Assembly (NCBI GenBank): GCA_046563655.1
Contig: JAJCTO010000013.1
Coordinates: forward strand, 248,001-312,000
Direction of reading: 5' to 3'
DNA: 64,000 bases
Source of the DNA: Yuukianura sp. NJ FZ-2021
Lineage: Eukaryota
Shown: piece after piece, positions 18,001-56,458 of the stretch
How the letters are laid out: each line of letters starts with the position of its first letter
Numbering within the stretch: the stretch's first letter is position 1
Position numbers and translations under genes: made by a program
Notes under the pieces: generated by a model
The model's database searches: none
What the model was told of the DNA's origin: nothing
The model's input: the letters and a program-made list of their open reading frames with translations, nothing else

Positions 18001-18073
18001 GGTATAAACTAATGTGGGAACTATACAACGAAGTTTTAAACATACTGAAAATTGGAATTTATGCCTTGTTATT
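1..18073. repeat. ~508-bp tandem satellite array, block 1 (~35.5 monomers; continues beyond the window start)
   Basis: The same ~508-bp unit (cggcaatggaacttcagggg...aatgactcaga) recurs every 506-509 bp. ORF-track starts at 247, 755, 1263... confirm the period. Confidence 0.98.
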
Positions 18074-19131
18074 TGAAACGGGGTGATTTTCTTATGCTCC
18101 ATTGTTGCGTAAACCTAACACAAATACTATCCTTTGATTGTCCTCTGAAAACAACCAAACAGCTAATTGCAACAGCATAGCGGGTCTAACACCCGTCCCA
18201 CCCTAATTGACCTGACAACTTGACCCCTCTGGGTCCCTGGATTCTAGTTAGCTCAATGACCTGAGTGGACCGTACTTCAGTCCCACTCCCTACCCTACCT
18301 TCCACTCTTTAGGTGGGGCCGGTCCCACCCGACCCACATCACCTAAGTGTCTCAATATGCTCGTCTAGCTACCCTTATTAAATCATGTTTGAGAAGGGAA
18401 GATTCCCTTACCTTGGTCAGCTACGGTTGACACCAGTCGAACCCTGGACAGCAGAATCAGCGGAAGTGACGGTGGCAGATGTGCAAGCTCTCGAAGACGA
18501 GGAATTGACGATCGGTGAAGAGAATTCCCAGGAAGAGTGTTTATTGTTCCCAAAAAGACTTATTCTAAAGAGCAACTTTACAATCTAGCCAACTGATCTA
18601 AGAGAGAGAGATTCTTCCCCAAAAGCTAATTTAAAAATGACTTAACGCTAACAAGTTGCTACCTATATTTATAACCTCGCGCTTGACCCAGCTTGTCCTT
18701 CAACTGAGGGACGCTTAGAGACCTGAGTTCAAAGTTGGACGTTAATGACCAGGATCTCAGGTCCAGCTTTGTCATTAATGTCCAAGATTGAACAAAGTTA
18801 CGAGCCTATGCAAATTGATAAAACAGGGATTTTGAATGGGAAAATCAACTCTCTTGCGAGTGGACACCCCATGTTTGACAGATGTCAAACTTGCTGAGCA
18901 AGTTGTTTTACATGACAAGTCCAAAGGACTTGTCAAATCACCTTTTTCTTATCATAAGTCTTGAGACCTCCTGTCTCAATTTCCCAACTTTCCTTAATTA
19001 TCAATTTGCATACTCGACATGTCTCTTACCCGGTTTTAACTAGTTTTGTCTTAACTTAATTAGCCGTCCGAATTCGGCCCAACTTCAAATCAATTGATTG
19101 ATTTGGAGATGGCTCAAAATCCGACGTTACA
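18074..19131 (-). repeat. 3' LTR of element 1 (1058 bp)
   Basis: Near-identical to 26992-28048; I see one substitution (tttaggtgg vs tttacgtgg) and one 1-bp T indel. The PPT lies adjacent. Confidence 0.95.
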
Positions 19132-19145
19132 TTATTCCCCAACTT
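19132..19145 (-). other. Polypurine tract of element 1
   Basis: Minus strand reads AAGTTGGGGAATAA immediately before the TGT start of the 3' LTR. Confidence 0.7.
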
Positions 19146-20073
19146 GTTCTAATCTACGTCCTCGTAGATTTCCTAATTATGCAACAGAGTATCCTGACAT
19201 AATGGTTAAGGTATTCCGATCTACAAATTTGATGACATGGATTTGAAGCCTGAACTCATAAATGGATAACATAGAACTGTTCTACCCGAATTCAACATAG
19301 TATAATATTGATGTAACAATAGCCAAGGTTGAAATAAACTTATCATCATGAGTGAAAGCTAGCTTAAAAGAATGTTAAGAGAATTCCAATGGGTGTTTGG
19401 GACATTGGGTCTGCCTTGTCAGAGTAGTGGATGAATGCAAATGGATGCGTAGTTCTCTGCCCATTGGTCTCGTACTGTGGTCTCACCATGTGATGCAAGC
19501 TTTCAACTTTCGTTTTCTAGTGATGAAATTTGTCTGCGCTACTCCGAATCCTCACCGGAAGTTCTCAGTGGAGTCGTTGTAGTTTCAGCGATAATTACTG
19601 TAACGGGAAGTTGAGTCGTCCTCATCACTCATGAACGCTTCTGGTAAACTCTCATTGAGTTCGTTTGGGTCTCTGGGATATCCTGAGGACTGTGAGCGTC
19701 CGTGTTGACTTGATTTCCGTGATTTAACGTACTTCCGTGAGTTGAGAGGTGATCAAGTTTTCCACAAGGACTTCGTTGCTTAGCGCGGCATTATTGACCT
19801 TTTGCTCACAGGAGTTCGAACTTGATCAAAGCTACGTCGTACTCCAGCGCCCAATAGGACGATGATGTTGCAAATCAGACTGTAGTGATGTGTCCAGATT
19901 GGAACACATGAATGGGATGCGTTGGAGCTTCATTCTTCCCTTTTATTCTCTTATGGTTAAGTTTGTGAATATGTATTATGATTAATTTCAATGAATAACA
20001 TCGACCGCTTATTATCTACTTATGATTACAAATTTTAGTAACATTACTCTTAGAGGACACATTTCTAAGTGAT

Positions 20074-20958
20074 TTAATAGTTATGTGGAAACAGATTACT
20101 TCGAGGTCGTAGTTCGTAATCCTCTCTGGATTTGTTTTTAACATGGTTGATCAATTCTTCTCGAATTGGTAAACCATGATTTCGATAACCTTCGAGTGTC
20201 TTGGCCAACAATCGAAACGATGATTTAGCCTCACATTCGAGTAAGTCAATACAAATCATATCCCTGTATTTGAAATAATAACTGGGTGGATATATTTGAT
20301 AGTGTAGACAAATGTCTTCGATGTCTTTGGTATTTAACTGTGTGAAAAAGTTTTTCCGGATCGCGATTTGGCTCTGACGCCGATCTCCTAATTTCTCAAT
20401 GTACTGCAAAACTGGAAATAATTTTCCTTCTGGGAAAATTATACGTTTGCATTTGCCGAAGTCAATTGGCCTTGGGGTAAAAGATCTTCTAGTGCGCGAA
20501 CTAGAAGGGATGATGAGGAGATTAGATTTGATTATTCCAAACCACACCTTCTCGGCACATGTTGGACGTGGGACAATTTCCTTTGTCCTTGGAAGTTCCT
20601 GAACTTCCTCAAACCCAAATTCCTGATAATTTTGACAAACAATTTCGGCAATTCCCTGACCTCGTTTTATAACGCGGTCCTCAATGTCATGGGAAAATAA
20701 TGTAATTTGTATAGGCTCGCAACGCTCTTGTCCGATAAATTCCATTTTTACGTTAATTAAATTACCTAACTGCTGGGAAGGGACAATGCAACCAAAAGTT
20801 CGTTCCGGAACTTCTACTTGAATAAATGTATTTATGACTGCTTTCCCTTTTGCTGGAAGTGCAGTATCAAAGGGGCATGAAAACGTAAATCCTGGCAAAG
20901 TTGCGGAAGTTTTTCGTAAAGGCAACGCTGCCCATGAATGTCGCTTGTATCTCAGCAT
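20074..20958 (-). CDS. Degenerate dUTPase-like N-terminal domain fused to an uncharacterised C-terminal domain (294 aa)
   Basis: The N-terminal ~120 aa follow the trimeric dUTPase layout (LPLRKT..PGFTFSCP..LPAKGKAVINTFIQVEVPERTFGCIVP..IQITLFSH..IKRGQGIAEIVC). Catalytic motifs (AGxDL, RSG, GvID.DYrG, motif V) are altered or absent. Confidence 0.7.
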   Translation of the reverse strand: MLRYKRHSWAALPLRKTSATLPGFTFSCPFDTALPAKGKAVINTFIQVEVPERTFGCIVPSQQLGNLINVKMEFIGQERCEPIQITLFSHDIEDRVIKRGQGIAEIVCQNYQEFGFEEVQELPRTKEIVPRPTCAEKVWFGIIKSNLLIIPSSSRTRRSFTPRPIDFGKCKRIIFPEGKLFPVLQYIEKLGDRRQSQIAIRKNFFTQLNTKDIEDICLHYQIYPPSYYFKYRDMICIDLLECEAKSSFRLLAKTLEGYRNHGLPIREELINHVKNKSREDYELRPRSNLFPHNY

Positions 20959-20996
20959 TCTCGAGGTTATTTACTCAAATCTCTTCTCCTTTTGCG

Positions 20997-21695
20997 TTAA
21001 AGGAATTCCCAGAGTGCAATATCTAGCCACTCGTCCGTTACCTCTAATCCTCGCTGTATATAATGTCTCCTAGCGCGTTTTCGTGCTCTGCGTTGAGCGA
21101 CAGTGAATCCAGCTAAGTAAATCGGAAGTTCCTCAGCATATATCTTTTCTAAATGAGACGCTAGGTCCTCTCTGTCGTTTGTGTAAAGACGGATTTGTTT
21201 GGCTAATGTTAGGAAGCGGTACGGTTTGGGTCTAGGACCGATGGGAACAAACGTACAGTATTCTCGGAAACTATAAAACTCGTCTCTAAATTTGCGCAAT
21301 ACTCTCTCTAATTCTTCTGGAGAGAAGGTTACTACAGCTTGCCAGTGAAGTTGAATGGGTTGATTGAAGTCTAAGATAAATTGGCTTAGCGCGACAGGAA
21401 ATGCGTTAAGTGGTACGTTTGATAGGAAGTTTTCTATTTTAGTTTGACTATCATGATCAATTTTTAGTATCCCAATATTATATCCTGGTTTTAGTACAAC
21501 AACGTTATCAAATATAAATTTTTGTTTTGCGCGAACTTCTCTTTTTGTTGCTTCTACAAACGCTAATAGACTTGGGTAAACCTCAGTGATGTTGCTTATG
21601 TCCTGTAGACAACAGAACTGGAAAATCTTACCCAATGCAAGCTCTGGTAACTCGTAGAGTTGGATGGCTGCAGGTTTCTGCGTACCACAGTTCAT
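20997..21695 (-). CDS. Putative F-box-like protein (232 aa from the first ATG; the frame is open further upstream)
   Basis: LYELPELALGKIFQFCCLQDISNITEVYPSL lies ~12 aa after the Met and matches the F-box pattern L..LP.E.L..IF..L...D....V. The ORF track uses a TTG start at 21818. Confidence 0.55.
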   Translation of the reverse strand: MNCGTQKPAAIQLYELPELALGKIFQFCCLQDISNITEVYPSLLAFVEATKREVRAKQKFIFDNVVVLKPGYNIGILKIDHDSQTKIENFLSNVPLNAFPVALSQFILDFNQPIQLHWQAVVTFSPEELERVLRKFRDEFYSFREYCTFVPIGPRPKPYRFLTLAKQIRLYTNDREDLASHLEKIYAEELPIYLAGFTVAQRRARKRARRHYIQRGLEVTDEWLDIALWEFL

Positions 21696-22642
21696 GTGAT
21701 CGTGGCTGTATATTCCCCTGGATGGTTCCAAATTTTTGTATTCTCCAGGCTCGGTTTCTGATACGCGAGTTGGCAATCGCACGCGCCAGCACTGGAAGTC
21801 GTCTGGATAAATTCTCAAGCGAGATTTCCTTGATAACCTAAAATCGTTATGTTTCTGACGAATATGATTAATAGTTTTTGAATCTACACGACTACTTTTG
21901 ATTTCTTTCTGACCATTTCTCTGTTCCAGACCTAACGTAGTCGAACATGTTTGATATATCTCCTCCTAAGCATTCGGCTAAGTTTGCGTCAGTTACGCGT
22001 AACCAAAAATTCATTGTAATTCTATGAAACCTAACACATGTAAACAGCAGTGTGTGTTTTGTTCACGCTAGTTTCTAATGCTGATGTAAGTGGAACAGTA
22101 GGCGACTGATGACTGATGACTGTGTATAATAGTTGAGTATAACTAGGCGATGACAATAAACTCAAATTCCTACCTTATCAGTTGTTTCCTATACTTAAAC
22201 GAATGCTAAACGCAGTTGCTTTAAGAAATGTCTTCATAAGAGAAAACAGTAAACTAAACATCAGTGATTCAGTTCTTGACTGGAGTCGAGGTACTTCATT
22301 CTTTCTGGTGACCCTAATGTCTATGGCCAATCTTATGTCAACAGTATCACCATTATTTTAAATTTTATAAATTCGAACTAAGATTAATGCACCAAATTTC
22401 GATTTCTATTGCTCATCTAATTTTGAACTTGGAAAACCAAAGGCTTATTATCTGTGGCCCCGTTGGTTATTTTAATTCAGTATGTGGTATTATTACCATT
22501 CGAACGATTGCATCTCGAAACTATCTACTTTTATCACACACTTCTAACTTTTCAAAAAAAAAAATTATTGGCTGCCAACACACTACTTGAGTGCCTTCCC
22601 CAACTTCGTCTGCTGCTACTCCTGGAGCAGCGGTTGTCGTAG

Positions 22643-23317
22643 TTAAGCGGAGTCTTGCTTCCTGTTCATCATAAATTCGTAGTCTTCTTTTTGAATGAGA
22701 ATGTCAACGACATCTTGAGGAGTTTTCGGCTGACGAAGAAAGACCTCATAACTTTCGTCTGGATTTAGACCTTTCAATAAATATTTGATGCGTTTCTCGT
22801 TTTTCATAACAGTTCCCTGACTCTTGTCTAGTTGGTCGCACAAGCGCATGATCTTGCTACAATATTCTTCGATACGGACGTTCTTCCCTCGTCGCATCTG
22901 GGCGAGTTTATGTTCAAGGGCGTCTTCGGTGAGACGAGACTTAAAGTCCAGCTGAAAAGCTGCCTCAATTTTAGGCCATGACAATGGCACTTTCTCACCG
23001 TCGTCATCAATGTTGGCTGGATCCCTTTTCCAGTCCGTGCAGTAATTCAGCCACCAAGTCTTGGCGTATTTGGTAAGATAGAGCGGAAAATGGGTGACCT
23101 TCGCAGCGTCATCCCAGTGCTGCGAAGCGGCGACCGCCTTAAACGTTTGCATAAAATTCGTAGCTGGTGTTCCCCGTTTCCCTTCAAACATGGGGTCACC
23201 CGGTGGGGTCCACACGGAAACAAACACGTTCCCAGTTCCTATAGGTGGCACTAATGCCATTGGGCCAGGGCCACTCCCTCCTGGAGTCCCTGCACCGGTT
23301 TTGTCCGGATCGCTCAT
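22643..23317 (-). CDS. gag: Ty3/gypsy Gag capsid protein (Arc-like, both CA lobes, no nucleocapsid zinc knuckle), 224 aa
   Basis: Typical retrotransposon gag motifs: PMFEG..NFMQTF..WDDAAKV..LYLTKYAKTWW..SWPKIEAAFQLDF..KLAQMRRGKNVRIEEYCSKIMRLCDQLD..KRIKYLLKGL..PKTPQDVV. Confidence 0.88.
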   Translation of the reverse strand: MSDPDKTGAGTPGGSGPGPMALVPPIGTGNVFVSVWTPPGDPMFEGKRGTPATNFMQTFKAVAASQHWDDAAKVTHFPLYLTKYAKTWWLNYCTDWKRDPANIDDDGEKVPLSWPKIEAAFQLDFKSRLTEDALEHKLAQMRRGKNVRIEEYCSKIMRLCDQLDKSQGTVMKNEKRIKYLLKGLNPDESYEVFLRQPKTPQDVVDILIQKEDYEFMMNRKQDSA

Positions 23318-23825
23318 GGAGCCTTAGATGGTTCCCGTTAAGTCGAGACTTGGGAACTACTTCTCTCCCGTTTAGAAGTTGGAAGTAAAATAAGACGATC
23401 AGACCTGCCCACCTTCGTGGTCGTACTAGTGTGCTGGCTTTTCCTTGCCACACGATCGTCCTTCACAGTGGATTGGATGGAGGTTGAACTGTGTCAACCA
23501 GTACCGCTGGTATAGTAATGATGTCTGGATTCGTTGGAGTGGTGCTTGACCCTGCTTGTGTGCCTGAAGTGACTTCCTCCGCTCGATTCTTAGGATACTT
23601 CGACTTAGACCGATTGTCCTTCAGCACCGAATCCAGTACAGTAAACGAAAATTCCGGTGTTCCTCGTTCTTTCTTTTCCCTGAACCGGAATCACCAGTAC
23701 TCGTGCCCTCAAATTAGGCACAGTACCTTAATCAAAATAATACCATGAGTTCACTCATGTGACTCGATAATTAATCTCGGAAATTCAAAACATGGATTTT
23801 TTTTTTACTACTTTTAATTGGATAA

Positions 23826-25187
23826 TTAACAGAATGAATTCCAATTGGTAATCTGTGCAATCAGTGAAACCATTACACTGAGAATTGCCTGAGTGAGTGA
23901 CCCTATCTCGGCTGCCCCGGCAGTCGGGTCATTCTCTTCGGACTCACAATTAAATTTCAGGAACTCTGCTAACCGACAATATCGTTGGAGTCGGAAGTTC
24001 CAATCATAGTCTATAATATAGCTATATTCTAGTGAAGAGAATCCTAAGCGGTACTCGACAAAGCTAACGATGGGTGCACGAACTTGACTTAATCGTGCAG
24101 GGTATTCGACTTTATCCTTGGGAAACAATTTCCCCTGAGAGTGGTAGTAACCTAGCCATGTGCCATTGACTTGTAAATACAAGTCCCTTCTGTGCGTTAT
24201 CACTCCGGTAATCGGAGTTGAAATTCCTAATTCTTTGGTTCCTAATGGGTACCCTTGCTCTAGTAGGTTGGTGAAATATTTCCAATATTGCCCGTTAGTA
24301 AAAATGTAAACAAAATCATCGAACAAAAAGATTTTGTTGATCTTAGTATTTTCTGGAAAATGTTGATAGTATTGAAAGTTGGTTATGAATCTGGGGTAGC
24401 TAAGCTTGCCTGATTTCTCCACTTGGTAATGTCCAAAACCTTGGAACAGGAAATAGACATTGTTCAATTGGTATGCGTGTTCGATATGATCGCTGCATAC
24501 AGCTGTGCTAAGTTGGTTTTGGACTTCCTTCTGTTCGGCATCAATTTGAATTCCAAGCTGAGTTTGTTCATATAGTTTGTCAAGGGCTTGTCTATCTACA
24601 ATGTCTAATTTTAGTTTAGGGTCCCGTAATTTGTACCAAGGGTACATGATAGAGCTATTCTCTGAAGTGTGGGTAAGCCCCAGAGCATGACCCACTTCGT
24701 GTAACATTACAGTGTATAGGTTAATGCCAGTGGCATTAGAACCAGTCACCCAATTTTCAGATGCATCTAAATGTATATGACTTCCTAGTCCCTCGCTAGG
24801 ATAAGATGCGTGGCCTAGGATACCACTCTCAGCATCAAATGGCTTAGAATCGTTATGATCAAATTTCACAAATTTGATTTGAATCTCTACATGTGAGTCA
24901 TCGGGCTTATGAACAAAAGTCAAATTGGAAACTTCGTTCCACCTAGATAAGGCTAGCCTAACATCGGCACTAGCATCTACTTCCCCGATTTCCAAGGGTA
25001 CATCTTGTATGGTCCATCCTAACTGAAACGCTGACCACATCCTTGGGTTGAACACGCGACGCTTCGTTTTCAGATTGTCTGTGGGGTCATCCTCCCAACA
25101 TCGGATGGCTCCGTCTTCTTCTCTCACGAGTACGGATCCTGTAGCCATCAGCGTTAGCGTCGTAAAAAGTAAAGCGTATGAAGACAT
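23826..25187 (-). CDS. Secreted matrix metalloproteinase (peptidase M10A) with hemopexin-like C-terminal region and hydrophobic tail, 453 aa, intronless
   Basis: Hydrophobic N-terminus MSSYALLFTTLTLMATGS; KTKRR furin-like site; structural Zn/Ca region HNDSKPFDAESGILGHASYP..HIHLDASENW; catalytic HEVGHALGLTH (~24669-24701); Met-turn SIMYPWY; hemopexin-like YFLFQG../YPRFI../VYIFTNGQYWKY../GYP repeats. Confidence 0.95.
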   Translation of the reverse strand: MSSYALLFTTLTLMATGSVLVREEDGAIRCWEDDPTDNLKTKRRVFNPRMWSAFQLGWTIQDVPLEIGEVDASADVRLALSRWNEVSNLTFVHKPDDSHVEIQIKFVKFDHNDSKPFDAESGILGHASYPSEGLGSHIHLDASENWVTGSNATGINLYTVMLHEVGHALGLTHTSENSSIMYPWYKLRDPKLKLDIVDRQALDKLYEQTQLGIQIDAEQKEVQNQLSTAVCSDHIEHAYQLNNVYFLFQGFGHYQVEKSGKLSYPRFITNFQYYQHFPENTKINKIFLFDDFVYIFTNGQYWKYFTNLLEQGYPLGTKELGISTPITGVITHRRDLYLQVNGTWLGYYHSQGKLFPKDKVEYPARLSQVRAPIVSFVEYRLGFSSLEYSYIIDYDWNFRLQRYCRLAEFLKFNCESEENDPTAGAAEIGSLTQAILSVMVSLIAQITNWNSFC

Positions 25188-26972
25188 TTCTTCGCTCCTT
25201 TTCTTCTTCTCCTGGAAGGTTACGTTTGGAGTGAATACCCCTCCTTCAATCCTTGAAGGTAGAATCTACTTAATGCTAGATCCTAACACCCCTGGCAAGG
25301 TCTCCTGCAGTAGGTTCAGTCCCCTCCCAGTCCAAAATCTCGAGGTAAATTACAATAAGGCTCCCTTCCTTGAGCATGGGGTGTATTTGTCAACTTATGT
25401 GACATCATCAGTGAGATAGATGGCCTATCGGACTGGCTAGGTCCGGGCATGATGCTCCATGGACTGGGATCTGACCTTGAGTTGACGACAACTCTATGAA
25501 AATTTCTAAAGCCATTCTTCAGAGGGGCTGTGGTACCCTGCCCCTTCGCATCACTAGCGTTCTAAGGAACAGCTGCAGAGACTTGACCTTCTCCCTGTTC
25601 TTAACTATGCTAAGTCCATTGGTCTCAGGCGGAACCTTCGCCACCTCCGGACCTAGCGCGGTATCCTGTTGTCTAGATTCTAGCTTATGTCCTACCTAAT
25701 AGCAAGTTTCAGCTGGTCATGACTCCAGCGTCCGCAAGTGTTCGGATTATCCTTCGACTAAGAGCAGTCATGGGGCATTCTCGCCAAATACCATGACCCC
25801 GGTCAAACATACACCAGTTGCTAAGGGTCTACCTCTTGACCCCGACTTGTCCCTAAAGGCGGGAAGCATCAAGTCCTTACGAGGACTCGGACCTAAAGCT
25901 ATTGTCCTTAAACAGTACTACATAGTCACAAGGTCTATCCTCCCTCGTGACGAAGTCATTTTTAAATTTTCGCAAATTGAGCGAAGGCTCCTCCCTTCAC
26001 TCTACTTTAAGTGTCGACTAACTGTAGGAAGGGTTCCCCCCTTCCACTCTACTCTTTAATTATGAAGTGAAAGTTTTGAGAAGAAAAGAAACAGAAGAAA
26101 GCTAAACGGGTTTCCGTCATTATTTTAAATTCAGTCTTAGAAACTTGTATGAGATCAGTAGATGATTACATTGTAGGGGTATAGTTACTTCTATACCAAA
26201 AGCTGTTGAGGTCTAGAGAGGTCATAACGTCAAAAGCCTTTTTCTAAATGCGAATTTACGTTAATCCTGTCTATGTTTGAAAAGACACTAAACGAAAAGA
26301 TAAATTGAAATTTTGAAACATTGAAAAATTGAAACTAAATTCGAAATTCAAAAATTTGTCATTGCATCTCCATGCATGAATTCTACTAGTTTGAATTTTG
26401 AGTGTTCGCGCCGAAATTCTGTTCAAAATTTTAATGAAACTTGTATAGTAGTTAATTAACTTATTATGACTTCTTCAGGGATTAATCAGACGTTATGCAA
26501 TTGTACTTTATTGAAATGAATCAAATCATATCAAATCAGCTGATAATTTTATGAAATATGAGTTTGCTAAAATTTGCACTATTTTTCGGCTTTTCGCAAA
26601 AACAGAATTATGAAATAGGAAGAGCATTAGATGTAACACATGAAACTTTAAAAATTTTGCTTAGAACTGACTACTGAACTGCAAGAAGATAAGACTTGAT
26701 GTTCGTCCATACATCCTACTTTAAATTTTCAAAATTTAAATTTTCGCGCCAAAAGTCATTCTTCAAAAGTTCTTCAGAAATGTGAAAGAGGACTTGCCAT
26801 TTAGGCTGTGGGCTATAGACCTACCCTTGCAAATAGTAAAAATTTTCAAATTCAAATTTTCCCGCCAAAGCGAGTTTCAAATTCTAAGAGCTGCTTTCTC
26901 CAGACGTTATGTTAAACGTTATTCTAGTTGACCTCGCTTGACCTTAAGTGAATCTAGGGACTATACAGAAGG

Positions 26973-26990
26973 ATCTCAGTAGAACCTCCA
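26973..26990 (-). promoter_or_regulatory. Primer-binding site, tRNA-Gln type
   Basis: Minus strand TGGAGGTTCTACTGAGAT starts 1 nt after the 5' LTR. It is complementary (two G-U pairs) to the conserved metazoan tRNA-Gln 3' end ATCTCGGTGGAACCTCCA. Confidence 0.8.
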
Positions 26991-26991
26991 T

Positions 26992-28048
26992 TGAAACGGG
27001 GTGATTTTCTTATGCTCCATTGTTGCGTAAACCTAACACAAATACTATCCTTTGATTGTCCTCTGAAAACAACCAAACAGCTAATTGCAACAGCATAGCG
27101 GGTCTAACACCCGTCCCACCCTAATTGACCTGACAACTTGACCCCTCTGGGTCCCTGGATTCTAGTTAGCTCAATGACCTGAGTGGACCGTACTTCAGTC
27201 CCACTCCCTACCCTACCTTCCACTCTTTACGTGGGGCCGGTCCCACCCGACCCACATCACCTAAGTGTCTCAATATGCTCGTCTAGCTACCCTTATTAAA
27301 TCATGTTTGAGAAGGGAAGATTCCCTTACCTTGGTCAGCTACGGTTGACACCAGTCGAACCCTGGACAGCAGAATCAGCGGAAGTGACGGTGGCAGATGT
27401 GCAAGCTCTCGAAGACGAGGAATTGACGATCGGTGAAGAGAATTCCCAGGAAGAGTGTTTATTGTTCCCAAAAAGACTTATTCTAAAGAGCAACTTTACA
27501 ATCTAGCCAACTGATCTAAGAGAGAGAGATTCTTCCCCAAAAGCTAATTTAAAAATGACTTAACGCTAACAAGTTGCTACCTATATTTATAACCTCGCGC
27601 TTGACCCAGCTTGTCCTTCAACTGAGGGACGCTTAGAGACCTGAGTTCAAAGTTGGACGTTAATGACCAGGATCTCAGGTCCAGCTTTGTCATTAATGTC
27701 CAAGATTGAACAAAGTTACGAGCCTATGCAAATTGATAAAACAGGGATTTTGAATGGGAAAATCAACTCTCTTGCGAGTGGACACCCCATGTTTGACAGA
27801 TGTCAAACTTGCTGAGCAAGTTGTTTTACATGACAAGTCCAAAGGACTTGTCAAATCACCTTTTCTTATCATAAGTCTTGAGACCTCCTGTCTCAATTTC
27901 CCAACTTTCCTTAATTATCAATTTGCATACTCGACATGTCTCTTACCCGGTTTTAACTAGTTTTGTCTTAACTTAATTAGCCGTCCGAATTCGGCCCAAC
28001 TTCAAATCAATTGATTGATTTGGAGATGGCTCAAAATCCGACGTTACA
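26992..28048 (-). repeat. 5' LTR of element 1 (1057 bp)
   Basis: Minus strand TGTAACG...TTTCA followed by the PBS. Contains minus-strand TATAAATA (27584-27591) and, downstream of it, AATAAA (27458-27463). Confidence 0.95.
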
Positions 28049-31000
28049 TATTGCGTCTAACCATCTTCATGGAACGCATCTAATACCGGTCCACTTTGTC
28101 GTAGTGCATCAACGACTATTACACACGGTAAACCACTTGTTGTCAGCATTCATCTTTGAGCACAAAGGAGGAGTGCCGGTGAAATGACAAGCTCGTCCTC
28201 ACTACAGATACCAACCAGTACTCATTTTGACACTATGAATCACAATGACTCAGACGGCAATGGAACTTCAGGGGAAATCCCATTATTACATTGTCTAAAT
28301 CAAAATGAAACATTCCGCATTATTTGTTATCTTGATTAGAATTTTTAGGAAATAATTTTTTATGTCATACTACCACCTTGCACTTCCAATAAAGCACAAC
28401 TGAATAACTGGTGTTCAACAACAATCTGGAATTATATTTTAGCCCAACTCCACTATGCAACAAGTGCATAAATCTAACTGTCATTTTGGTATAAACTAAT
28501 GTGGGAACTATACAACGAAGTTTTAAACATACTGAAAATTGGAATTTATGCCTTGTTATTGCTTCTAACCATCTTCATGGAACGCATCTAATACCGGTCC
28601 ACTTTGTCGTAGTGGATCAACGACTATTACACACAGTGAACCACTTGTTGTCAGCCTTCATCTTTGAGCACAAAGGAGAAGTGCCGGTGAAATGACAAGC
28701 TCGTCCTCACTACAGATACCAACCAATACTCATTTTGACACTATGAATCACAATGACTCAGACGGCAATGGAACTTCAGGGAAATCCCATTATTACATTG
28801 TCTAAATCAAAATGAAACATTCCGCATTATTTGTTATCTTGATTAGAATTTTTAGGAAATAATTTTTTATGTCGTACAACCACCCTGCACTTCCAATAAA
28901 GCACACCTGAATAACTGGTGTTCAACAATAATCTGGAATTATATTTTAGCCCAAGTCCACTATGCAACAAGTGCATAAATCTAACTGTCATTTTGGTATA
29001 AACTAATGTGGGAACTATACAACGAAGTTTTAAACATACTGAAAATTGGAATTTATGCCTTGTTATTGCGTCTAACCATCTTCATGGAACGCATCTAATA
29101 CCGGTCCACTTTGTCGTAGTGCATCAACGACTATTACACACAGTGAACCACTTGTTGTCAGCCTTCATCTTTGAGCACAAAGGAGAAGTGCCGGTGAAAT
29201 TACAAGCTCGTCCTCACTACAGATACCAACCAATACTCATTTTGACACTATGAATCACAATGACTCAGACGGCAATGGAACTTCAGGGGAAATCCCATTA
29301 TTACATTGTCTAAATCAAAATGAAACATTCCGCATTATTTGTTATCTTGATTAGAATTTTTAGGAAATAATTTTTTATGTCATACTACCACCTTGCACTT
29401 CCAATAAAGCACAACTGAATAACTGGTGTTCAACAATAATCTGGAATTATATTTTAGCCCAACTCCACTATGCAACAAGTGCATAAATCTAACTGTCATT
29501 TTGGTATAAACTAATGTGCGAACTATACAACGAAGTTTTAAACATACTGAAAAATGGAATTTATGCCTTGTTAGCGCTTCTAACCATCTTCATGGAACGC
29601 ATCTAATACCGGTCCACTTTGTCGTAGTGCATCAACGACTATTACACACGGTAAACCACTTGTTGTCAGCCTTCATCTTTGAGCACAAAGTAGAAGTGCC
29701 GGTGAAATGACAAGCTCGTCCTCACTACAGATACCAACCAGTACTCATTTTGACACTATGAATCACAATGACTCAGACGGCAATGGAACTTCAGGGGGAA
29801 TCCCATTATTACATTGTCTAAATCAAAATGAAACATTCCGCATTATTTGTTATCTTGATTAGAATTTTAGGAAATAATTTTTTATGTCGTACAACCACCC
29901 TGCACTTCCAATAAAGCACACCTGAATAACTGGTGTTCAACAATAATCTGGAATTATATTTTAGCCCAACTCCACTATGCAACAAGTGCATAAATCTAAC
30001 TGTCATTTTGGTATAAACTAATGTGGGAACTATACAACGAAGTTTTAAACATACTGAAAATTGGAATTTATGCCTTGTTATTGCGTCTAACCATCTTCAT
30101 GGAACGCATCTAATACCGGTCCACTTTGTCGTAGTGCATCAACGACTATTACACACGGTAAACCACTTGTTGTCAGCATTCATCTTTGAGCACAAAGGAG
30201 AAGTGCCGGTGAAATGACAAGCTCGTCCTCACTACAGATACCAACCAGTACTCATTTTGACACTATGAATCACAATGACTCAGACGGCAATGGAACTTCA
30301 GGGGAAATCCCATTATTACATTGTCTAAATCAAAATGAAACATTCCGCATTATTTGTTATCTTGATTAGAATTTTTAGGAAATAATTTTTTATGTCGTAC
30401 AACCACCCTGCACTTCCAATAAAGCACACCTGAATAACTGGTGTTCAACAATAATCTGGAATTATATTTTAGCCCAACTCCACTATGCAACAAGTGCATA
30501 AATCTAACTGTCATTTTGGTATAAACTAATGTGGGAACTATACAACGAAGTTTTAAACATACTGAAAATTGGAATTTATGCCTTGTTATTGCTTCTAACC
30601 ATCTTCATGGAACGCATCTAATACCGGTCCACTTTGTCGTAGTGCATCAACGACTATTACACACGGTAAACCACTTGTTGTCAGCCTTCATCTTTGAGCA
30701 CAAAGGAGAAGTGCCGGTGAAATGACAAGCTCGTCCTCACTACAGATACCAACCAATACTCATTTTGACACTATGAATCACAATGACTCAGACGGCAATG
30801 GAACTTCAAGGGAAATCCCATTATTACATTGTCTAAATCAAAATGAAACATTCCGCATTATTTGTTATCTTGATTAGAATTTTTAGGAAATAATTTTTTA
30901 TGTCGTACAACCACCCTGCACTTCCAATAAAGCACACCTGAATAACTGGTGTTCAACAATAATCTGGAATTATATTTTAGCCCAACTCCACTATGCAACA

Positions 31001-34000
31001 AGTGCATAAATCTAACTGTCATTTTGGTATAAACTAATGTGGGAACTATACAACGAAGTTTTAAACATACTGAAAATTGGAATTTATGCCTTGTTATTGC
31101 TTCTAACCATCTTCATGGAACGCATCTAATACCGGTCCACTTTGTCGTAGTGCATCAACGACTATTACACACAGTGAACCACTTGTTGTCAGCCTTCATC
31201 TTTGAGCACAAAGGAGAAGTGCCGGTGAAATGACAAGCTCGTCCTCACTACGGATACCAACCAATACTCATTTTGACACTATGAATCACAATGACTCAGA
31301 TGGCAATGGAACTTCAGGGGAAATCCCATTATTACATTGTCTAAATCAAAATGAAACATTCCGCATTATTTGTTATCTTGATTAGAATTTTTAGGAAATA
31401 ATTTTTTATGTCATACTACCACCTTGCACTTCCAATAAAGCACAACTGAATAACTGGTGTTCAACAATAATCTGGAATTATATTTTAGCCCAACTCCACT
31501 ATGCAACAAGTGCATAAATCTAACTGTCATTTTGGTATAAACTAATGTGCGAACTATACAACGAAGTTTTAAACATACTGAAAAATGGAATTTATGCCTT
31601 GTTAGCGCTTCTAACCATCTTCATGGAACGCATCTAATACCGGTCCACTTTGTCGTAGTGCATCAACGACTATTACACACGGTAAACCACTTGTTGTCAG
31701 CCTTCATCTTTGAGCACAAAGTAGAAGTGCCGGTGAAATGACAAGCTCGTCCTCACTACAGATACCAACCAGTACTCATTTTGACACTATGAATCACAAT
31801 GACTCAGACGGCAATGGAACTTCAGGGGAAATCCCATTATTACATTGTCTAAATCAAAATGAAACATTCCGCATTATTTGTTATCTTGATTAGAATTTTT
31901 AGGAAATAATTTTTTATGTCGTACAACCACCCTGCACTTCCAATAAAGCACACCTGAATAACTGGTGTTCAACAATAATCTGGAATTATATTTTAGCCCA
32001 ACTCCACTATGCAACAAGTGCATAAATCTAACTGTCATTTTGGTATAAACTAATGTGCGAACTATACAACGAAGTTTTAAACATACTGAAAAATGGAATT
32101 TATGCCTTGTTAACGCTTCTAACCATCTTCATGGAACGCATCTAATACCGGTCCACTTTGTCGTAGTGCATCAACGACTATTACACACGGTGAACCACTT
32201 GTTGTCAGCCTTCATCTTTGAGCACAAAGGAGAAGTGCCGGTGAAATGACAAGCTCGTCCTCACTACAGATACCAACCAGTACTCATTTTGACACTATGA
32301 ATCACAATGACTCAGACGGCAATGGAACTTCAGGGGAAATCCCATTATTACATTGTCTAAATCAAAATGAAACATTCCGCATTATTTGTTATCTTGATTA
32401 GAATTTTTAGGAAATAATTTTTTATGTCATACTACCACATTGCACTTCCAATAAAGCACAACTGAATAACTGGTGTTCAACAATAATCTGGAATTATATT
32501 TTACCCCAACTCCACTATGCAACAAGTGCATAAATCTAACTGTCATTTTGGTATAAACTAATGTGGGAACTATACAACGAAGTTTTAAACATACTGAAAA
32601 ATGGAATTTATGCCTTGTTATCGCTTCTAACCATCTTCATGGAACGCATCTAATACCGGTCCACTTTGTCGTAGTGCATCAACGACTATTACACACGGTG
32701 AACCACTTGTTGTCAGCCTTCATCTTTGAGCACAAAGGAGAAGTGCCGGTGAAATGACAAGCTCGTCCTCACTACAGATACCAACCAGTACTCATTTTGA
32801 CACTATGAATCACAATGACTCAGACGGCAATGGAACTTCAGGGGAAATCCCATTATTACATTGTCTAAATCAAAATGAAACATTCCGCATTATTTGTTAT
32901 CTTGATTAGAATTTTTAGGAAATAATTTTTTATGTCATACTACCACCTTGCACTTCCAATAAAGCACAACTGAATAACTGGTGTTCAACAATAATCTGGA
33001 ATTATATTTTAGCCCAACTCCACTATGCAACAAGTGCATAAATCTAACTGTCATTTTGGTATAAACTAATGTGCGAACTATACAACGAAGTTTTAAGCAT
33101 ACTGAAAAATGGAATTTATGCCTTGTTATCGCTTCTAACCATCTTCATGGAACGCATCTAATACCGGTCCACTTTGTCGTAGTGCATCAACGACTATTAC
33201 ACACGGTGAACCACTTGTTGTCAGCCTTCATCTTTGAGCACAAAGGAGAAGTGCCGGTGAAATGACAAGCTCGTCCTCACTACAGATACCAACCAGTACT
33301 CATTTTGACACTATGAATCACAATGACTCAGACGGCAATGGAACTTCAGGGGAAATCCCATTATTACATTGTCTAAATCAAAATGAAACATTCCGCATTA
33401 TTTGTTATCTTGATTAGAATTTTTAGGAAATAATTTTTTATGTCATACTACCACCTTGCACTTCCAATAAAGCACAACTGAATAACTGGTGTTCAACAAT
33501 AATCTGGAATTATATTTTAGCCCAACTCCACTATGCAACAAGTGCATAAATCTAACTGTCATTTTGGTATAAACTAATGTGCGAACTATACAACGAAGTT
33601 TTAAACATACTGAAAAATGGAATTTATGCCTTGTTAGCGCTTCTAACCATCTTCATGGAACGCATCTAATACCGGTCCACTTTGTCGTAGTGCATCAACG
33701 ACTATTACACACGGTAAACCACTTGTTGTCAGCCTTCATCTTTGAGCACAAAGGAGAAGTGCCGGTGAAATGACAAGCTCGTCCTCACTACAGATACCAA
33801 CCAGTACTCATTTTGACACTATGAATCACAATGACTCAGACGGCAATGGAACTTCAGGGGAAATCCCATTATTACATTGTCTAAATCAAAATGAAACATT
33901 CCGCATTATTTGTTATCTTGATTAGAATTTTTAGGAAATAATTTTTTATGTCATACTACCACCTTGCACTTCCATAAAGCACAACTGAATAACTGGTGTT

Positions 34001-47737: not shown

Positions 47738-48100
47738 TGTAACGCCTCGACGTCACGGTCAGCCATGTGTAACGCCCTACGACGCTAAACAACTGAAAAA
47801 CACAACTGGAGCAAACACTGCCGCTCCGCACCAGACTACTCTCTGAGTCCGCAGACTCTCAGACCCAAATGACCCCAAACAATCACCACTGCTCACAACT
47901 ACATCGGCGAATAAATGTATGAAATATATTTATTCGTCGAGAATAAAATATATACAACAAACCTCCGTCTCCCGCAGAGACCAAAAACCAACTAAACTAA
48001 ACTAACTGAATCTCTCTCTCTACCACACCGTATCTCGAATCTCCCGCGGCTCATCTCCGCAACCTAACCTAACTAATCGCCGGAGTAGCAGACGCCAACA
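47738..48100 (-). repeat. 3' LTR of element 2 (363 bp)
   Basis: Direct repeat of 50600-50966. Adjacent 48101-48111 is a purine tract on the minus strand. Confidence 0.95.
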
Positions 48101-50597: not shown

Positions 50598-50599
50598 TG

Positions 50600-52516: not shown

Positions 52517-55500
52517 TCAAAGTAAGTAGATTTCGTAGAGTTCTTTCCCGGGAGGCAGTGTTCCCAGTATTGAAGCGGTGTTACCTCTTTGTATGGCGAT
52601 GCTTACGCGCTGAAGTAAAAAAGAAGTTGCTCGATTGTCTCCAGTTGATTCAGAAATTCGATGTCCAATGGATTTCAGAAGACGTAGTCCTTCATCACCA
52701 AACACACCCGAGGTCTCGACAGCTATAATGGAAACAATAAATCGTTTTTCGAGGTCGCGATAGATGTTGTGTTTGTGGATTTCGGCTAATGAAGACGGAT
52801 GGCCAAGCGAAGAGGAAGAAGTTGGAAGGTAGGAAGCTGCATAGGTATCCCGACAAGTGAAATCCCACACCAAACAACGCCCAGTCTTCCATGGGATGAG
52901 CGTCATGCCGTCTGGCCGTTTTCCATCTGCTCTTGAACATCCGGATGGTTCTTTAACGTTTGGTATGCCAGCTGAATGCAAAGCTCTGGAAATGATGTCG
53001 TTGATGGAGCCATGTCTAGAGTTTCTACCGGCGCTTCGAATGCAACTTAAGCCGTGTAGGCCGTCACTCGACACTGAAGTTCCACATTTGCAACGATGAG
53101 GCTGGCATACATTGGAGCCTAGGCGAAGACAGCAAGAGATTCTGAATGTTTCGTCAGAGAGTAGAGTTCCAAGCGGAGAGGAGGGAATCGCATGCAGCCA
53201 ATCGCCTGAGTGAGGGGCGGTTGCGGCCAACAATCGTGCTTTGTCAATCAGAGTGTTGCAATTTTCAAGCAGAGAAGTATAAATACGTTTGAAGATGATC
53301 GTTTCCCAAAGATTTTGTATTTTTGCGTCGTGAGGTGTTTCGAGACCCAATAGTGACCAATTGAGAGAAGCAAGGTCCAAAGAATTGTCGAAAGGAGAGA
53401 GATGTGGCGGAAGAAAGGCGGAGATAAGGTCGGCACAACTATTTACTGAGGCCAAAAATGAAAATGTAGCACAGTCCGTAGCGTGTCGTACACCCAAACC
53501 ACCTTGGTTCACAGGTAAGGAAGATTGTAGCCAGGCTTCATCGGTCAAGTGTGTGTTAATGATGGATTCCAAAACGGCGCGTAAGGATGAGTCGTAGGAT
53601 TGGAGAAGGTCAGTTTCTAGGAATGACGGCGAACATCTGAGAAAGTACAACAGTCTTGGTGTCGATATTGAGGCCCTGAGCAGGAAAAAAGCAACATGCG
53701 CAGGCAGGTAGGAAAGTCTGGAAGAGAGTTTCTTGAAGTCTTCAGTTTTGGATTGAAGAATTCGACGAGAAGAGTCCTTGAAGAGCGGAGCTCCCAGAAG
53801 TTCAGATTGGCAGTTGTTGGGAAAGACAAAATCTTGTGAAACTGAACGGAAGGAGTTGGAGATAGAGTGTGTTTCAGTTTGATCCGCGGCAAGAATGATG
53901 ACTTCGCATTTTTGCAAGTTAAGATGTAATCCAAGAGAGGAAGCATGGGATTGGATGATCTTGAGATTTGACAGCACAACATCTGGGGTATCAGCGATGG
54001 TGGCGTCATCTAGGTACCAAGCATTGAATTCTGTTGTCAACGACGAGGCTAACGGATGTATTGTTAAGGCAAACAGTGCTGGTCCTAGGGGATCCCCCTG
54101 CTGCACGCCTAGTTTGGACTTGAAACAACAGGAATCGTAGAAAAGATCAGAATCATGTAAGTAGGCTTGAGAGATAAAGTTGAAAAACTCGGGAAGGTGT
54201 TGTTTCACAGCGTCAAGCATCTTGTCTCTTCTAAGGAGATTGAAAGCGTTCCGAAAATCCATCTTTAGTAGAACCTTTGGTGAGGAGTGATTGGCGTTGC
54301 AAAAAATCCTAGCGGCATGGGCGACAGCTTCTGCTCCATTTTTGACACCGACACCAACTTGGATTGGACTCAAGACGGACGAAATGACATTCATTGAACG
54401 ATACAGGATCAGTTTCGAGACGAGGCGTCTCCACGTGAGGCCAACGGCAATTGGTCGGATTCCGCCCTTCTTCTTCTGAATTGCGATGAGAGATGCCCCA
54501 AAAAAGATTGGTCTGATGTCATCGGGAAGAGATCCATTTGAAATGAGGTTACATAGTTTTGAAATTGATGACAGGAGTCTTGAACCGGCGTCACCTGCTG
54601 ATTTGGAGATTAGCTCCTTCAAAATTTGAGGACGAAGGGAGTCCAGGCCGCCAGAGGAACCATTCGGGAAGGAAGAAACGCGTTTCTGGAAGTCAATGTC
54701 TTCGAAAACAGCTTCTTCTGATGTTGGAGGATCCGGAAAAGTGGTGGGTTGAGGATGTGCAGGGTGTAGTTGACTGAGAGCTTCAATAGTGGTGGAGTCA
54801 ACAGCAGCCAAGTGGTCATCTGAGCAGAGGATTCTAATGGCTCCACTAACGTCACCGTCTGCAACTTTGGATTGGACTAGATTAGAGTTGTTCCACAGTT
54901 GTGAGTTCTGATTGGAGCGTGGATGATGACATGTTGGTGGTAGTTCAAAATTACTTGCATTGTCGACATTTGATTTCACCCATGTGGTCAAATTTGTAAC
55001 GCGATCATCTTTAGTCGGAAGCTGGAAAGCGGCGTATCGAAAAATTAGAAGTTTCTCCCATGATTCTGATGTATTTTCGACAACTACTTCTTCGATGATG
55101 ATGGATAGTTTTGATGCAGCTACTTGTCTTGCTCCCTTTGGAATGTGCTTTAGGGTTTGAACCGAATTTCTCAAATCAGCGAAACGAAGTCCTAGGGGAA
55201 GCTTATTGGATGATTCTGTCGAGGGGTTAGACCATGTTACACCGACGTAGGATTGTCCGCTGTGTTTTCGTCCTCCAGCCCGTGTTTTGGTGACGTCGGG
55301 AAAGATTTCTAGGAGTTTGGTTCCAATTGTGGCGTCAGCAAGGGGACGAATCTGAATCGACGAGCAGAAACTGTGATACTTCTCTTTAAAGTCTTGTTTC
55401 TTGATCATTCCTCCGGAGCATAGTCGCATGTTGGAACAAATCCAGTTGTCAGTTATCTTTGAGATTTGTGATTTGGAATGGTTATTGGAGGCATTGGAGA

Positions 55501-56179
55501 CGCGTTGGTCGCTGGCTGGAACTGAGTGAGGACAGGAAGGGTCTTCGTTGGATGCAGGAACGGACGAAGAAGAGGAGAGAGAGAGATTTGATGCTCGAAA
55601 TGAAGATAAAGACAAACTGGAAGCATCTTCGTTGGGAACAGGAATTGACGACGAACAGGAAGCAATTTCATTGGTAACAGGGACTGTTGACAAACTTGAA
55701 GCATCTTCATTGGTAACAGGAACCGACAATAGACTGGAAGCATCTTCATTGGGAACAGGAAAAGACAACAAACTGGAAGCATCTTCATTGGTACCAGGAA
55801 CAGTTGACAAACTGGAAGCATCTTTATTAGTAACAGGAACCGACAATAGACTGGAAGCATCTTCATTAGGAGCAGGAACAGACAACAAACTGGAGGCATC
55901 TTCATTTGGAGCATCAACTGGCAACGAACTGGAAGCATTTTCATTGGTAACAGGAACTGAAGATGAACTGGAAGCAATTACAATGTTAGGCGATGAAAAA
56001 CTTGAGGTGAATGCATTGACGACTGGGTCTGATGGAAAACTAGAAACGGCATTGTTGGATGTAGGAACTGTTGAAGATATCAATTTCACTTTTGGAGCTG
56101 AAGAGGATTCAGGAGAAGGAGAAATTGCGATGGACGATGATTTCATTTTACTTCTGTTTTTTAATTTCCGTTGAGGCAT
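52517..56179 (-). CDS. Polyprotein: Ser-rich repeats, RFX-like winged helix, reverse transcriptase, CCHC knuckle, RLE endonuclease (1220 aa)
   Basis: RT motifs KKKGGIRPIAVG, MDFRNAFN, GVQQGDPLGP, WYLDD; zinc knuckle CKC..HGLSC; RH..IND; RLE KRPDG..WDFTCRDT..E..K; CRE-typical C-terminus QRVSIAIQRGN. Confidence 0.95.
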   Translation of the reverse strand: MPQRKLKNRSKMKSSSIAISPSPESSSAPKVKLISSTVPTSNNAVSSFPSDPVVNAFTSSFSSPNIVIASSSSSVPVTNENASSSLPVDAPNEDASSLLSVPAPNEDASSLLSVPVTNKDASSLSTVPGTNEDASSLLSFPVPNEDASSLLSVPVTNEDASSLSTVPVTNEIASCSSSIPVPNEDASSLSLSSFRASNLSLSSSSSVPASNEDPSCPHSVPASDQRVSNASNNHSKSQISKITDNWICSNMRLCSGGMIKKQDFKEKYHSFCSSIQIRPLADATIGTKLLEIFPDVTKTRAGGRKHSGQSYVGVTWSNPSTESSNKLPLGLRFADLRNSVQTLKHIPKGARQVAASKLSIIIEEVVVENTSESWEKLLIFRYAAFQLPTKDDRVTNLTTWVKSNVDNASNFELPPTCHHPRSNQNSQLWNNSNLVQSKVADGDVSGAIRILCSDDHLAAVDSTTIEALSQLHPAHPQPTTFPDPPTSEEAVFEDIDFQKRVSSFPNGSSGGLDSLRPQILKELISKSAGDAGSRLLSSISKLCNLISNGSLPDDIRPIFFGASLIAIQKKKGGIRPIAVGLTWRRLVSKLILYRSMNVISSVLSPIQVGVGVKNGAEAVAHAARIFCNANHSSPKVLLKMDFRNAFNLLRRDKMLDAVKQHLPEFFNFISQAYLHDSDLFYDSCCFKSKLGVQQGDPLGPALFALTIHPLASSLTTEFNAWYLDDATIADTPDVVLSNLKIIQSHASSLGLHLNLQKCEVIILAADQTETHSISNSFRSVSQDFVFPNNCQSELLGAPLFKDSSRRILQSKTEDFKKLSSRLSYLPAHVAFFLLRASISTPRLLYFLRCSPSFLETDLLQSYDSSLRAVLESIINTHLTDEAWLQSSLPVNQGGLGVRHATDCATFSFLASVNSCADLISAFLPPHLSPFDNSLDLASLNWSLLGLETPHDAKIQNLWETIIFKRIYTSLLENCNTLIDKARLLAATAPHSGDWLHAIPSSPLGTLLSDETFRISCCLRLGSNVCQPHRCKCGTSVSSDGLHGLSCIRSAGRNSRHGSINDIISRALHSAGIPNVKEPSGCSRADGKRPDGMTLIPWKTGRCLVWDFTCRDTYAASYLPTSSSSLGHPSSLAEIHKHNIYRDLEKRFIVSIIAVETSGVFGDEGLRLLKSIGHRISESTGDNRATSFLLQRVSIAIQRGNTASILGTLPPGKELYEIYLL
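55540..55985 (-). repeat. 39-bp coding minisatellite (13-aa unit SVPVTNEDASSLL, ~10 copies)
   Basis: The ggaagcatcttcatt motif recurs every 39 bp (~55620-55970) inside the CRE-like ORF. Confidence 0.85.
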
Positions 56180-56458
56180 ATCAGTCGTTATGGCGATGAG
56201 GTCACGGGTTCACGGAGTTGTTGAAAACTTTGAGCGTTGTTGATGCGCGAAGTGTGACTGGACGTCCGAGTGACGAAACTGGTCCGGAAAGGATGAAATG
56301 GTGACGTATCTTCCTGAAACCTGTCACAAGTTGATCAGCAAACGAAGCTCTTTCGGATGATATAAGCAAAAGTTGGATAGATTATGAATTAATGCTTTAA
56401 AAACTGTGAAAATGAGGAGCAAAGATTTCGTGTTTTCACTTTTTGTTGATCAATAAAT

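Follow-up and report, generated by a model that had tools for sequence, protein, structure and literature searches.

A long terminal repeat element without pol that carries a matrix metalloproteinase reading frame upstream of gag

Structure of the element and its insertion site

We analyzed a 64,000-nucleotide stretch of contig JAJCTO010000013.1 (positions 248,001 to 312,000; the whole stretch is called the window here, and all positions are window positions) that contains a 453-aa matrix metalloproteinase (MMP) open reading frame (ORF), running open from ATG to stop on the minus strand (25187..23826). This is the first ORF of a single long terminal repeat (LTR) element that spans 18074-28048, is 9,975 bp long, and has the minus strand as its sense strand. 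The original prediction for this locus held that an MMP is carried by a retroelement as the first ORF upstream of gag, and this is borne out by the LTRs, by a target-site duplication (TSD), and by a gag gene that starts 508 nt downstream of the MMP on the same strand.

The 1057-bp 5' LTR (26992..28048, minus strand) starts with TG, ends with CA, and is a direct repeat of the 1058-bp 3' LTR (18074..19131, minus strand); comparison of the two found 99.8% identity, with 1 substitution and 1 indel. The element is flanked by a TATT duplication (left copy, 18070..18073; right copy, 28049..28052). A primer-binding-site (PBS)-like sequence that begins with TGG, TGGAGGTTCTACTGAGAT (26973..26990, minus strand), lies one base past the 5' LTR, and we found no tRNA gene in the 64-kb window as its partner. 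A weak purine-rich sequence adjoining the 3' LTR, GTTGGGGAATA (19133..19145, minus strand), is a possible polypurine tract. The direct TG..CA LTRs, the TSD, and the PBS beside the 5' LTR are the structural hallmarks of a Ty3/gypsy-type element. Within the 5' LTR, on the minus strand, we also found TATAAATA at 27591, AATAAA at 27463, and, at 27331, AGGTAAG, which resembles the splice-donor consensus; to these we assign putative promoter, polyadenylation, and donor roles.

The element interrupts an array of a 508-bp satellite, present in a single orientation, that makes up 46.8 of the 64 kb (1-18072, 28049-47738, 50966-52473, and 56459-64000), and the satellite phase picks up again, exactly, across the element. 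The near-identical LTRs, the TATT duplication, and the restored satellite phase together indicate a single recent retrotransposition-type arrival of the whole 9,975-bp unit. The pieces of the satellite found by BLAST average ~98% identity to one monomer, and three unrelated insertions break the array; Tandem Repeats Finder missed the satellite because its longest period was 500.

A long satellite array is difficult to assemble, and an element placed inside one could be an assembly chimera or a host gene cluster caught between two unrelated solo LTRs. We regard this explanation as scarcely credible, since the matching 4-bp TSDs and the exact satellite phase mark one insertion of a 9,975-bp unit. 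To compare the locus with other copies, we aligned contigs from DNA sequencing runs to 19133-26990 at an identity of at least 80%; three contig sets (X1 to X3) come from one sample and a fourth (X4) comes from a second organism in a second study. Contigs of X1 and X2, perhaps from the same sample as the window, tile 19191-25330 with few differences, which also speaks against a chimera.

The region between the PBS and the MMP (25188..26972, minus strand) is a long leader without an ORF match that contains 31 ATGs from the PBS to the MMP start, and an acceptor-like ttccag/g lies 28 nt ahead of the MMP ATG. The gag ORF (23317..22643, minus strand) encodes 224 aa and covers the capsid part only (Pfam Retrotrans_gag, 1.5e-10; Ty3_capsid, 1.1e-07). 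We found no CCHC zinc knuckle in any sense frame of the element and no PDB sequence match to gag, and a word-indexed protein search returned one match to it (P0157, 55% identity). Two scans of metagenomes for gag gave no match and a single match, respectively, the latter on a 1,477-bp contig (L001, 52% identity) that is too short to reach upstream of gag. In L001 the reading frame continues into a CCHC-like knuckle. Since the window gag ends without a knuckle and this relative keeps one, we conclude from the comparison of the two sequences that gag in the element is a capsid-only remnant.

In the four large ORFs of the element, Pfam found only the M10, gag, and dUTPase families and no protease, reverse transcriptase (RT), RNase H, or integrase domain. 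The same search of 19 further ORFs of at least 50 aa found no retroelement domain at an E value of ≤1; for one of these small ORFs, two matches below threshold were seen, both to unrelated families (DUF7607, E of 0.037; N4_GP8, E of 0.12). DSG and YxDD strings occur in the element only in a stop-ridden or nonhomologous context, so that no credible protease or RT motif was seen, and the unassigned sense-strand stretches (941, 677, 508, and 1803 nt) are too small for pol. The element is a non-autonomous derivative without pol, and this absence is the chief correction to the earlier picture of it. With neither pol nor a nucleocapsid knuckle, replication-competent particles would need a helper.

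The metalloproteinase and its relatives

The MMP ORF encodes a signal peptide, a pro-peptide of ~25 aa, a catalytic domain, a hemopexin-like domain, and a hydrophobic tail. Pfam assigned residues 51-206 to Peptidase_M10 (E of 8.8e-43) and found a single hemopexin repeat at 18.3 bits, under the gathering score of 21.3. Among PDB sequences, 110 distinct chains matched at an E value of ≤0.001, all of them MMPs or karilysin, with the MMP-20 catalytic domain as the top match (5.7e-29). Along its length the ORF is an M10 peptidase, and neither Pfam nor structure comparison gave a match to an env-type family.

To place individual residues, we aligned the MMP with 29 single-module homologues taken from an exhaustive search described below. 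In these 30 sequences, IRCWEDD aligns to the PRCGxPD cysteine-switch columns. Of the switch, only R29, C30, and D34 are kept, at two invariant positions (R29 and D34) and one nearly invariant position (C30); other residues stand in place of the flanking P, G, and P. KTKRR sits in the block of columns that holds the furin-type RxKR/RRKR sites of the homologues. The helical pro-domain, ~55-60 residues long in the homologues, has no counterpart in the element MMP, where its columns are empty, and Pfam found no PG_binding_1 match in the ORF; the canonical matrixin pro-domain of a three-helix bundle plus PRCGxPD, a feature typical of the family without being universal in it, is therefore missing. 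The structural-zinc ligands H111, D113, H126, and H139 fall in invariant columns, as do H163, E164, H167, G170, and H173 of the zinc motif HEVGHALGLTH, which has the form HExxHxxGxxH, and M181 and P183 of the Met-turn. Two near-invariant cysteines, C231 and C414, flank the C-terminal domain.

An AlphaFold2 model built from the same alignment had a mean pLDDT of 75.7, with values of 87-96 in the catalytic domain and 74-91 in hemopexin blades 1-3; blade 4 was modeled poorly (41-63). The hydrophobic stretch at residues 421-452 was modeled as a terminal helix, and the tails of the homologues are similar. In Foldseek comparisons, the model aligned to full-length proMMP-1, MMP-13, MMP-1, and MMP-12 over 353-394 columns and to MMP catalytic domains with target TM-scores of 0.84-0.93 and root mean square deviations of 1.7-2.2 Å. 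Thus, each sequence feature named in the earlier account of this protein is confirmed: the reduced pro-domain with an altered switch and a basic site is placed in the expected columns, the zinc ligands and Met-turn are intact in a confidently predicted catalytic fold, the hydrophobic tail is present, and the structure prediction that had been proposed as a check recovers both the MMP catalytic domain and blades 1-3. Judged from its sequence, the protein has all the catalytic hallmarks of an MMP without the canonical pro-domain, and its intact residues and modeled fold make it most likely a working zinc endopeptidase.

A profile-free exhaustive search of 1.84 billion representative proteins with the MMP gave 5,949 matches at an E value of ≤0.001, and a word-indexed search gave 2 matches from 4,285 candidates, the best at 32% identity. 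Named neighbors of the MMP are spread across metazoa and include one bacterial metagenome-assembled genome. The top exhaustive matches (Amia/bowfin, Aquatica/firefly, Orchesella, and plants) were set aside because their scores are inflated by 2-3 tandem catalytic domains; no retroelement domain was found in these gene models. Three Orchesella models (P0006, P0010, and P0101) were also considered as close kin and were rejected at identities of only 31-34%. In P0006, from Orchesella cincta, the first of two MMP modules has a short N terminus in which SFCGLID and RMKR replace the full pro-domain (32-34% identity), and on the sequence of this protein springtails may have a resident MMP lineage with a short pro-peptide.

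The short pro-domain noted in the original prediction is not peculiar to the element. In 45 of the 164 proteins with a catalytic match, the model begins with Met and the domain lies within 75 residues, and most of these are truncated models; about 5-6 of the 164, as well as baculovirus MMPs, have such a minimal pro-domain. The layout of the element MMP recurs in P0129 and P0059, each with a signal peptide, a short Cys-containing peptide, catalytic and hemopexin domains, and a hydrophobic tail. In P0086, P0103, and P0053, a signal peptide is combined with a basic site and the Cys is absent; in the tree, these three group with a protein from a pinworm. In all five the pre-catalytic region comprises only about 20-40 residues, and P0046 is intermediate.

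A scan of viral contigs found 142 MMP relatives among 607 pattern matches, the best of them in genomes of 100-230 kb. Two of these contigs, L002 and L005, are baculoviral by their neighbors PIF-2, E66, and LEF-2. Like the element MMP, baculovirus (granulovirus-type) MMPs have a signal peptide, a short N terminus, an RxKR site, and an M10 catalytic domain, and L002 has the highest local identity to the element MMP found anywhere (48% over 122 aa, 107 bits). The element MMP might thus share ancestry with the baculovirus clade, the gene having moved in either direction between a retroelement and a large DNA virus instead of coming from a resident host gene. Several differences argue against this: identity to the other baculovirus MMPs is only 27-38%, their N termini, where compared, have no Cys-switch remnant, and Pfam found no domain besides M10 in the two baculovirus proteins scanned, while the element MMP has the switch remnant, the hemopexin-like domain, and the tail of cellular MMPs.

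Phylogenetic analysis did not decide between these origins. FastTree analyses of 176 and 199 catalytic domains placed the MMP without support, and we then used 58 domains picked from the 199 for quick and careful IQ-TREE trees. The free IQ-TREE trees pair the MMP with P0009, a metagenome MMP of canonical architecture (SH-aLRT of 83 in the quick tree; support of 95/83 in the careful tree), and the quick tree has a nine-member baculovirus clade that excludes the MMP with a support of 98. When the MMP was constrained into this clade, the log likelihood changed by +10.3 against the quick tree (p-AU of 0.74, approximately unbiased test) and by +1.5 against the careful tree (p-AU of 0.56), so the constraint is not worse. 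A cellular partner and the baculovirus clade therefore fit equally well as donor lineages. The query branch is long, which makes long-branch attraction a live concern, and with long branches on both sides attraction is likely to contribute to a viral placement. The comparison with viral MMPs that the original prediction had called for gives a divided answer: the free trees join the MMP to P0009 and not to the viral clade, and the viral-clade constraint is equally likely. Taking the trees and architecture together, we think descent in common with the baculovirus clade improbable.

Other cargo, family copies, and surroundings

Two more ORFs lie downstream of gag. ORF3 (21695..20997, minus strand; 232 aa) has, by eye, an N-terminal F-box-like motif of the LPxxxLxxIF type. 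It had no Pfam match even at an E value of ≤10 and no NCBIfam match, its one PDB row was at chance level (glucosamine-6-phosphate deaminase, E of 0.045, maximum E of 10), and a single-sequence AlphaFold model was unusable (pLDDT of 37.7). Its nearest ESM Atlas clusters, by language-model features, are F-box proteins (0.93). We take the Atlas features and the motif as a lead only that ORF3 may be an F-box-like protein.

ORF4 (20958..20074, minus strand; 294 aa) starts 38 nt past the ORF3 stop in a different frame and has an N-terminal dUTPase fold (Pfam dUTPase, 3.5e-08) followed by ~160 aa of other sequence. Its best solved relatives are the cellular dUTPases of shrimp (1.2e-13) and Drosophila (3.5e-12), and it also lies near dUTPase clusters in the ESM Atlas. 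In alignment to dUTPases, the motif Asp, the Arg/Ser, and the Asp of GxID are substituted and the last motif is missing. We conclude from this alignment that ORF4 is a degenerate, cell-derived dUTPase fold and a predicted pseudoenzyme.

The MMP ORF is uninterrupted and intronless. A candidate polyadenylation signal, ATTAAA (23818), lies 20 nt past its stop, and 6 nt beyond this signal comes an A10 run (23806-23797), a possible poly(A) remnant (23797..23823 for the whole feature, minus strand). Only two homopolymer runs of at least 7 occur in the 9,975-bp element, this A10 and a T11. An intronless ORF with ATTAAA and A10 after its stop suggests capture of a processed mRNA, of which the two motifs would be the polyadenylation signal and the remnant of the tail. 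In addition, the GC content at third codon positions is 0.51 in gag, compared to 0.41 in the MMP, 0.35 in ORF3, and 0.34 in ORF4, a gap that fits separate origins of gag and the cargo ORFs.

The aligned contigs allowed copies of the element to be compared. X1 gave 402 contig pieces, with 85 at ≥99% identity, 84 at 95-99%, 108 at 90-95%, and 125 under 90%, and this spread across identity classes indicates a family with diverged copies. A 7,141-nt contig of X4 preserves the order of the gag N terminus, the spacer, and the MMP catalytic region, similarly spaced. A second X4 contig, of 950 nt, spans 23900-24842 with 173 differences and 6 gaps, and X4 copies down to ~82% identity align across the MMP ORF. 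Some X1 and X2 contigs join 22563 to 26302 with few other letters between, so that the MMP-gag block is gone; the lower edge of this joint is the T11 run (22554-22564), the sole T run of the element.

Substitution counts are limited to the best-supported 40 of 1,223 differences, 26 of which are in ORFs; among these 40, synonymous and nonsynonymous differences number 10 and 3 in gag, 4 and 2 in the MMP, 3 and 1 in ORF4, and 1 and 2 in ORF3. We also found a paired +1/-1 indel in gag, six bases apart, that keeps the frame. The comparison leans toward constraint and is far from a test. A pseudogene-like pattern among copies had been named as a result that would count against the original prediction: the MMP counts lean synonymous, and a 1-nt deletion at 24558 in some copies points the other way.

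The intact MMP ORF could reflect nothing more than the youth of the insertion, the gene being a neutral passenger on a dying element with no function for element or host. LTRs that are 99.8% identical leave little time for decay, the 24558 deletion is found in other copies, and the degenerate state of ORF4 indicates that cargo on this element does decay. Even so, we consider a purely neutral passenger unlikely. The MMP is ~60-75% diverged from known MMPs yet keeps all invariant catalytic and structural residues, which indicates long-term constraint somewhere in its history; X4 copies at ~82% identity still align across the ORF, and the 4 synonymous versus 2 nonsynonymous MMP differences lean against free drift.

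The original prediction went further in the other direction and proposed that the MMP stands in for env, as a surface protease that would digest basal lamina for exit and entry of gag particles. Several observations are in keeping with such an adaptive role: the MMP is the first ORF under the LTR promoter, it is intact with secretory and membrane signals, its linkage to gag is preserved in the X4 contig from a second organism, and the copy differences lean synonymous. Baculovirus MMPs act in tissue breakdown, and arthropod-infecting baculoviruses carry MMPs of the same short N-terminal architecture. However, a protease provides neither receptor binding nor membrane fusion, some X1 and X2 copies are without the entire MMP-gag block (the 22563-26302 joint), and an element that has no pol, and whose gag has no zinc knuckle, makes at best helper-dependent particles. 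As the envelope substitute of a retrovirus-like element the MMP was overstated, and we give this role little credence.

Two of the three insertions in the satellite array lie outside the element. A non-LTR retrotransposon (52474-56458) contains a 1,230-codon ORF (56209..52517, minus strand) with an RFX DNA-binding domain (4.1e-09) upstream of an RT domain (2.3e-17) and a Cys/His-rich C terminus, and a 39/117-bp tandem repeat (55612-55976) falls in its N-terminal Ser-rich part. The closest named relatives of this ORF are Folsomia candida models with the same RFX-RT layout (46-51% identity), one of which is annotated as the transcription factor daf-19 and is probably a misannotated transposon. 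In the third insertion (47739-50965, 3.2 kb), the GC skew is strongly negative, a 96-bp unit is repeated in tandem at 48889-49100, and neither of two open frames, 547 and 151 codons long, had a Pfam match. The Folsomia-like non-LTR element and the arthropod dUTPases nearest to ORF4 hint that the host is an arthropod, perhaps a springtail. The ESM Atlas clusters near ORF3 are biased toward nematodes; we set this aside as a sign of the host, the neighboring non-LTR element being closest to springtail proteins.

Proposed history and parallels

Taken together, the locus is probably best explained as a young non-autonomous Ty3-type element, with LTRs, a PBS, a capsid-only gag, and no pol, that carries intronless cell-type cargo in the sense orientation, including a captured MMP. 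A number of points weigh against this explanation. No protein in the exhaustive search exceeds ~44% identity to the MMP on any stretch, and the MMP branch has a length of ~1.0 compared to a median of 0.33-0.35, about threefold, so that phylogeny does not single out a donor. The A10 run could be due to chance. X1 to X3 may be the sample behind the window assembly, and the 40 differences counted are a small sample. The deletion at 24558 occurs in one X1 contig (depth of 57.6, of 294) and in a high-depth X4 contig, and the copies that carry it may be broken unless it is compensated by one of 131 unlisted indels.

Under this explanation, a polyadenylated MMP mRNA would have been reverse transcribed and inserted between leader and gag, after which the gene would have traveled beside gag within a multicopy family. 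The near-identical LTRs and the diverged copies suggest that the family was mobilized in trans by the gag-pol of an autonomous relative. Transcription is predicted to start after TATAAATA (27591), which would give a leader of 2.37 kb with 36 ATGs, and with so many upstream ATGs translation of the MMP probably requires removal of an intron, predicted to run from the AGGTAAG donor at 27331 to the acceptor-like ttccag/g before the MMP ATG. The MMP would then be the promoter-proximal gene of the LTR transcript and is probably expressed; use of ATTAAA would yield an MMP-only mRNA, and read-through would yield genomic RNA.

The protein possesses the features required of an MMP both for catalysis and for entry into the secretory pathway, and it is predicted to take this route. 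Its 25-residue pro-peptide keeps R-C-x-x-x-D and might still cap the zinc, and since it has no helical bundle, latency is likely weak. A proprotein convertase could release the enzyme by a cut at KTKR/R, and the hydrophobic signal at the C terminus is predicted to tether it to the membrane through a GPI or transmembrane anchor. The MMP may be useful to the element or may be a still-intact passenger, and the limited copy comparison leans toward constraint.

Acutely transforming retroviruses contain an intronless copy of a captured cellular mRNA, have lost replication genes, are driven by LTRs, and need a helper. The element resembles them in its intronless, putatively captured gene, the loss of replication genes, and helper dependence, and it differs in being a genomic repeat family with no sign of an infectious cycle, a gag fusion, or growth-control cargo. 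The maize element Bs1 has a gag-only structure. With Bs1 and other plant gene-transducing LTR elements, the element described here has in common gag without pol, putatively host-derived coding sequence in the sense orientation, and predicted helper dependence; its cargo looks cellular, given the cell-type architecture of the MMP, the arthropod cellular dUTPases nearest to ORF4, and the ATTAAA and A10 that come after the MMP. Unlike Bs1, it has complete ORFs in place of gene fragments, one of them upstream of gag, an animal host (probably an arthropod), and an extracellular protease as cargo. PMC7264820 names Bs1 and reports for sorghum numerous genes captured by LTR elements, a large proportion of which are still functional.

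The Vesta, Juno, and TelKA LTR elements of bdelloid rotifers have a captured enzymatic ORF3 and a dUTPase domain (PMC5408684). They resemble the present element in that additional ORFs for enzymes of cellular or viral origin have been acquired and in having dUTPase-fold domains. Unlike the present element, they keep a full pol, with the extra ORF downstream of pol and the dUTPase within it, and their cargo is an esterase, an exonuclease, or a fusion protein and not an MMP (PMC5408684). Among MMPs, those anchored by glycosylphosphatidylinositol (MMP-17/25 type) also combine catalytic and hemopexin domains with a hydrophobic C-terminal signal, a layout common to many of the aligned invertebrate homologues and to a Tetraodon MMP17b match. 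Karilysin has a very short pro-peptide. Genes of the MMP-17/25 type and for karilysin are chromosomal or bacterial, unlike that of the element MMP with its IRCWEDD switch, and we know of none inside a retroelement; baculovirus MMPs reside in DNA virus genomes of 100-230 kb and are kept apart from the element MMP in the best free tree. A literature search, made outside most subscription journals and Repbase-type catalogues, returned no paper that describes an LTR retroelement with an MMP in it.

To our knowledge, most documented cases in which an LTR retrotransposon has captured a whole functional cellular gene come from plants and from oncogenic retroviruses. With an intact extracellular protease ahead of gag, two more ORFs of cell type, and pol missing, the present animal element would clearly exemplify a gene shuttle. 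It offers a concrete system for asking whether cargo aids the persistence of a non-autonomous element, and whether MMP genes could have passed between arthropods and their large DNA viruses by way of retroelements. In a more speculative form, to which we assign a low probability, the element would belong to an arthropod family that has traded its replication genes for cell-manipulating cargo and spreads as a helper-dependent satellite of an autonomous Ty3-type element. In such a family, an MMP activated by a convertase and tethered to the membrane, an adaptor of the F-box type, and a pseudoenzyme with a dUTPase fold would all be under selection, the MMP would breach tissue barriers as in baculoviruses, and MMPs would have been shuttled between arthropods and baculoviruses. 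If this were true, cargo-bearing satellite elements would be a vehicle of MMP gene movement between arthropods and baculoviruses.

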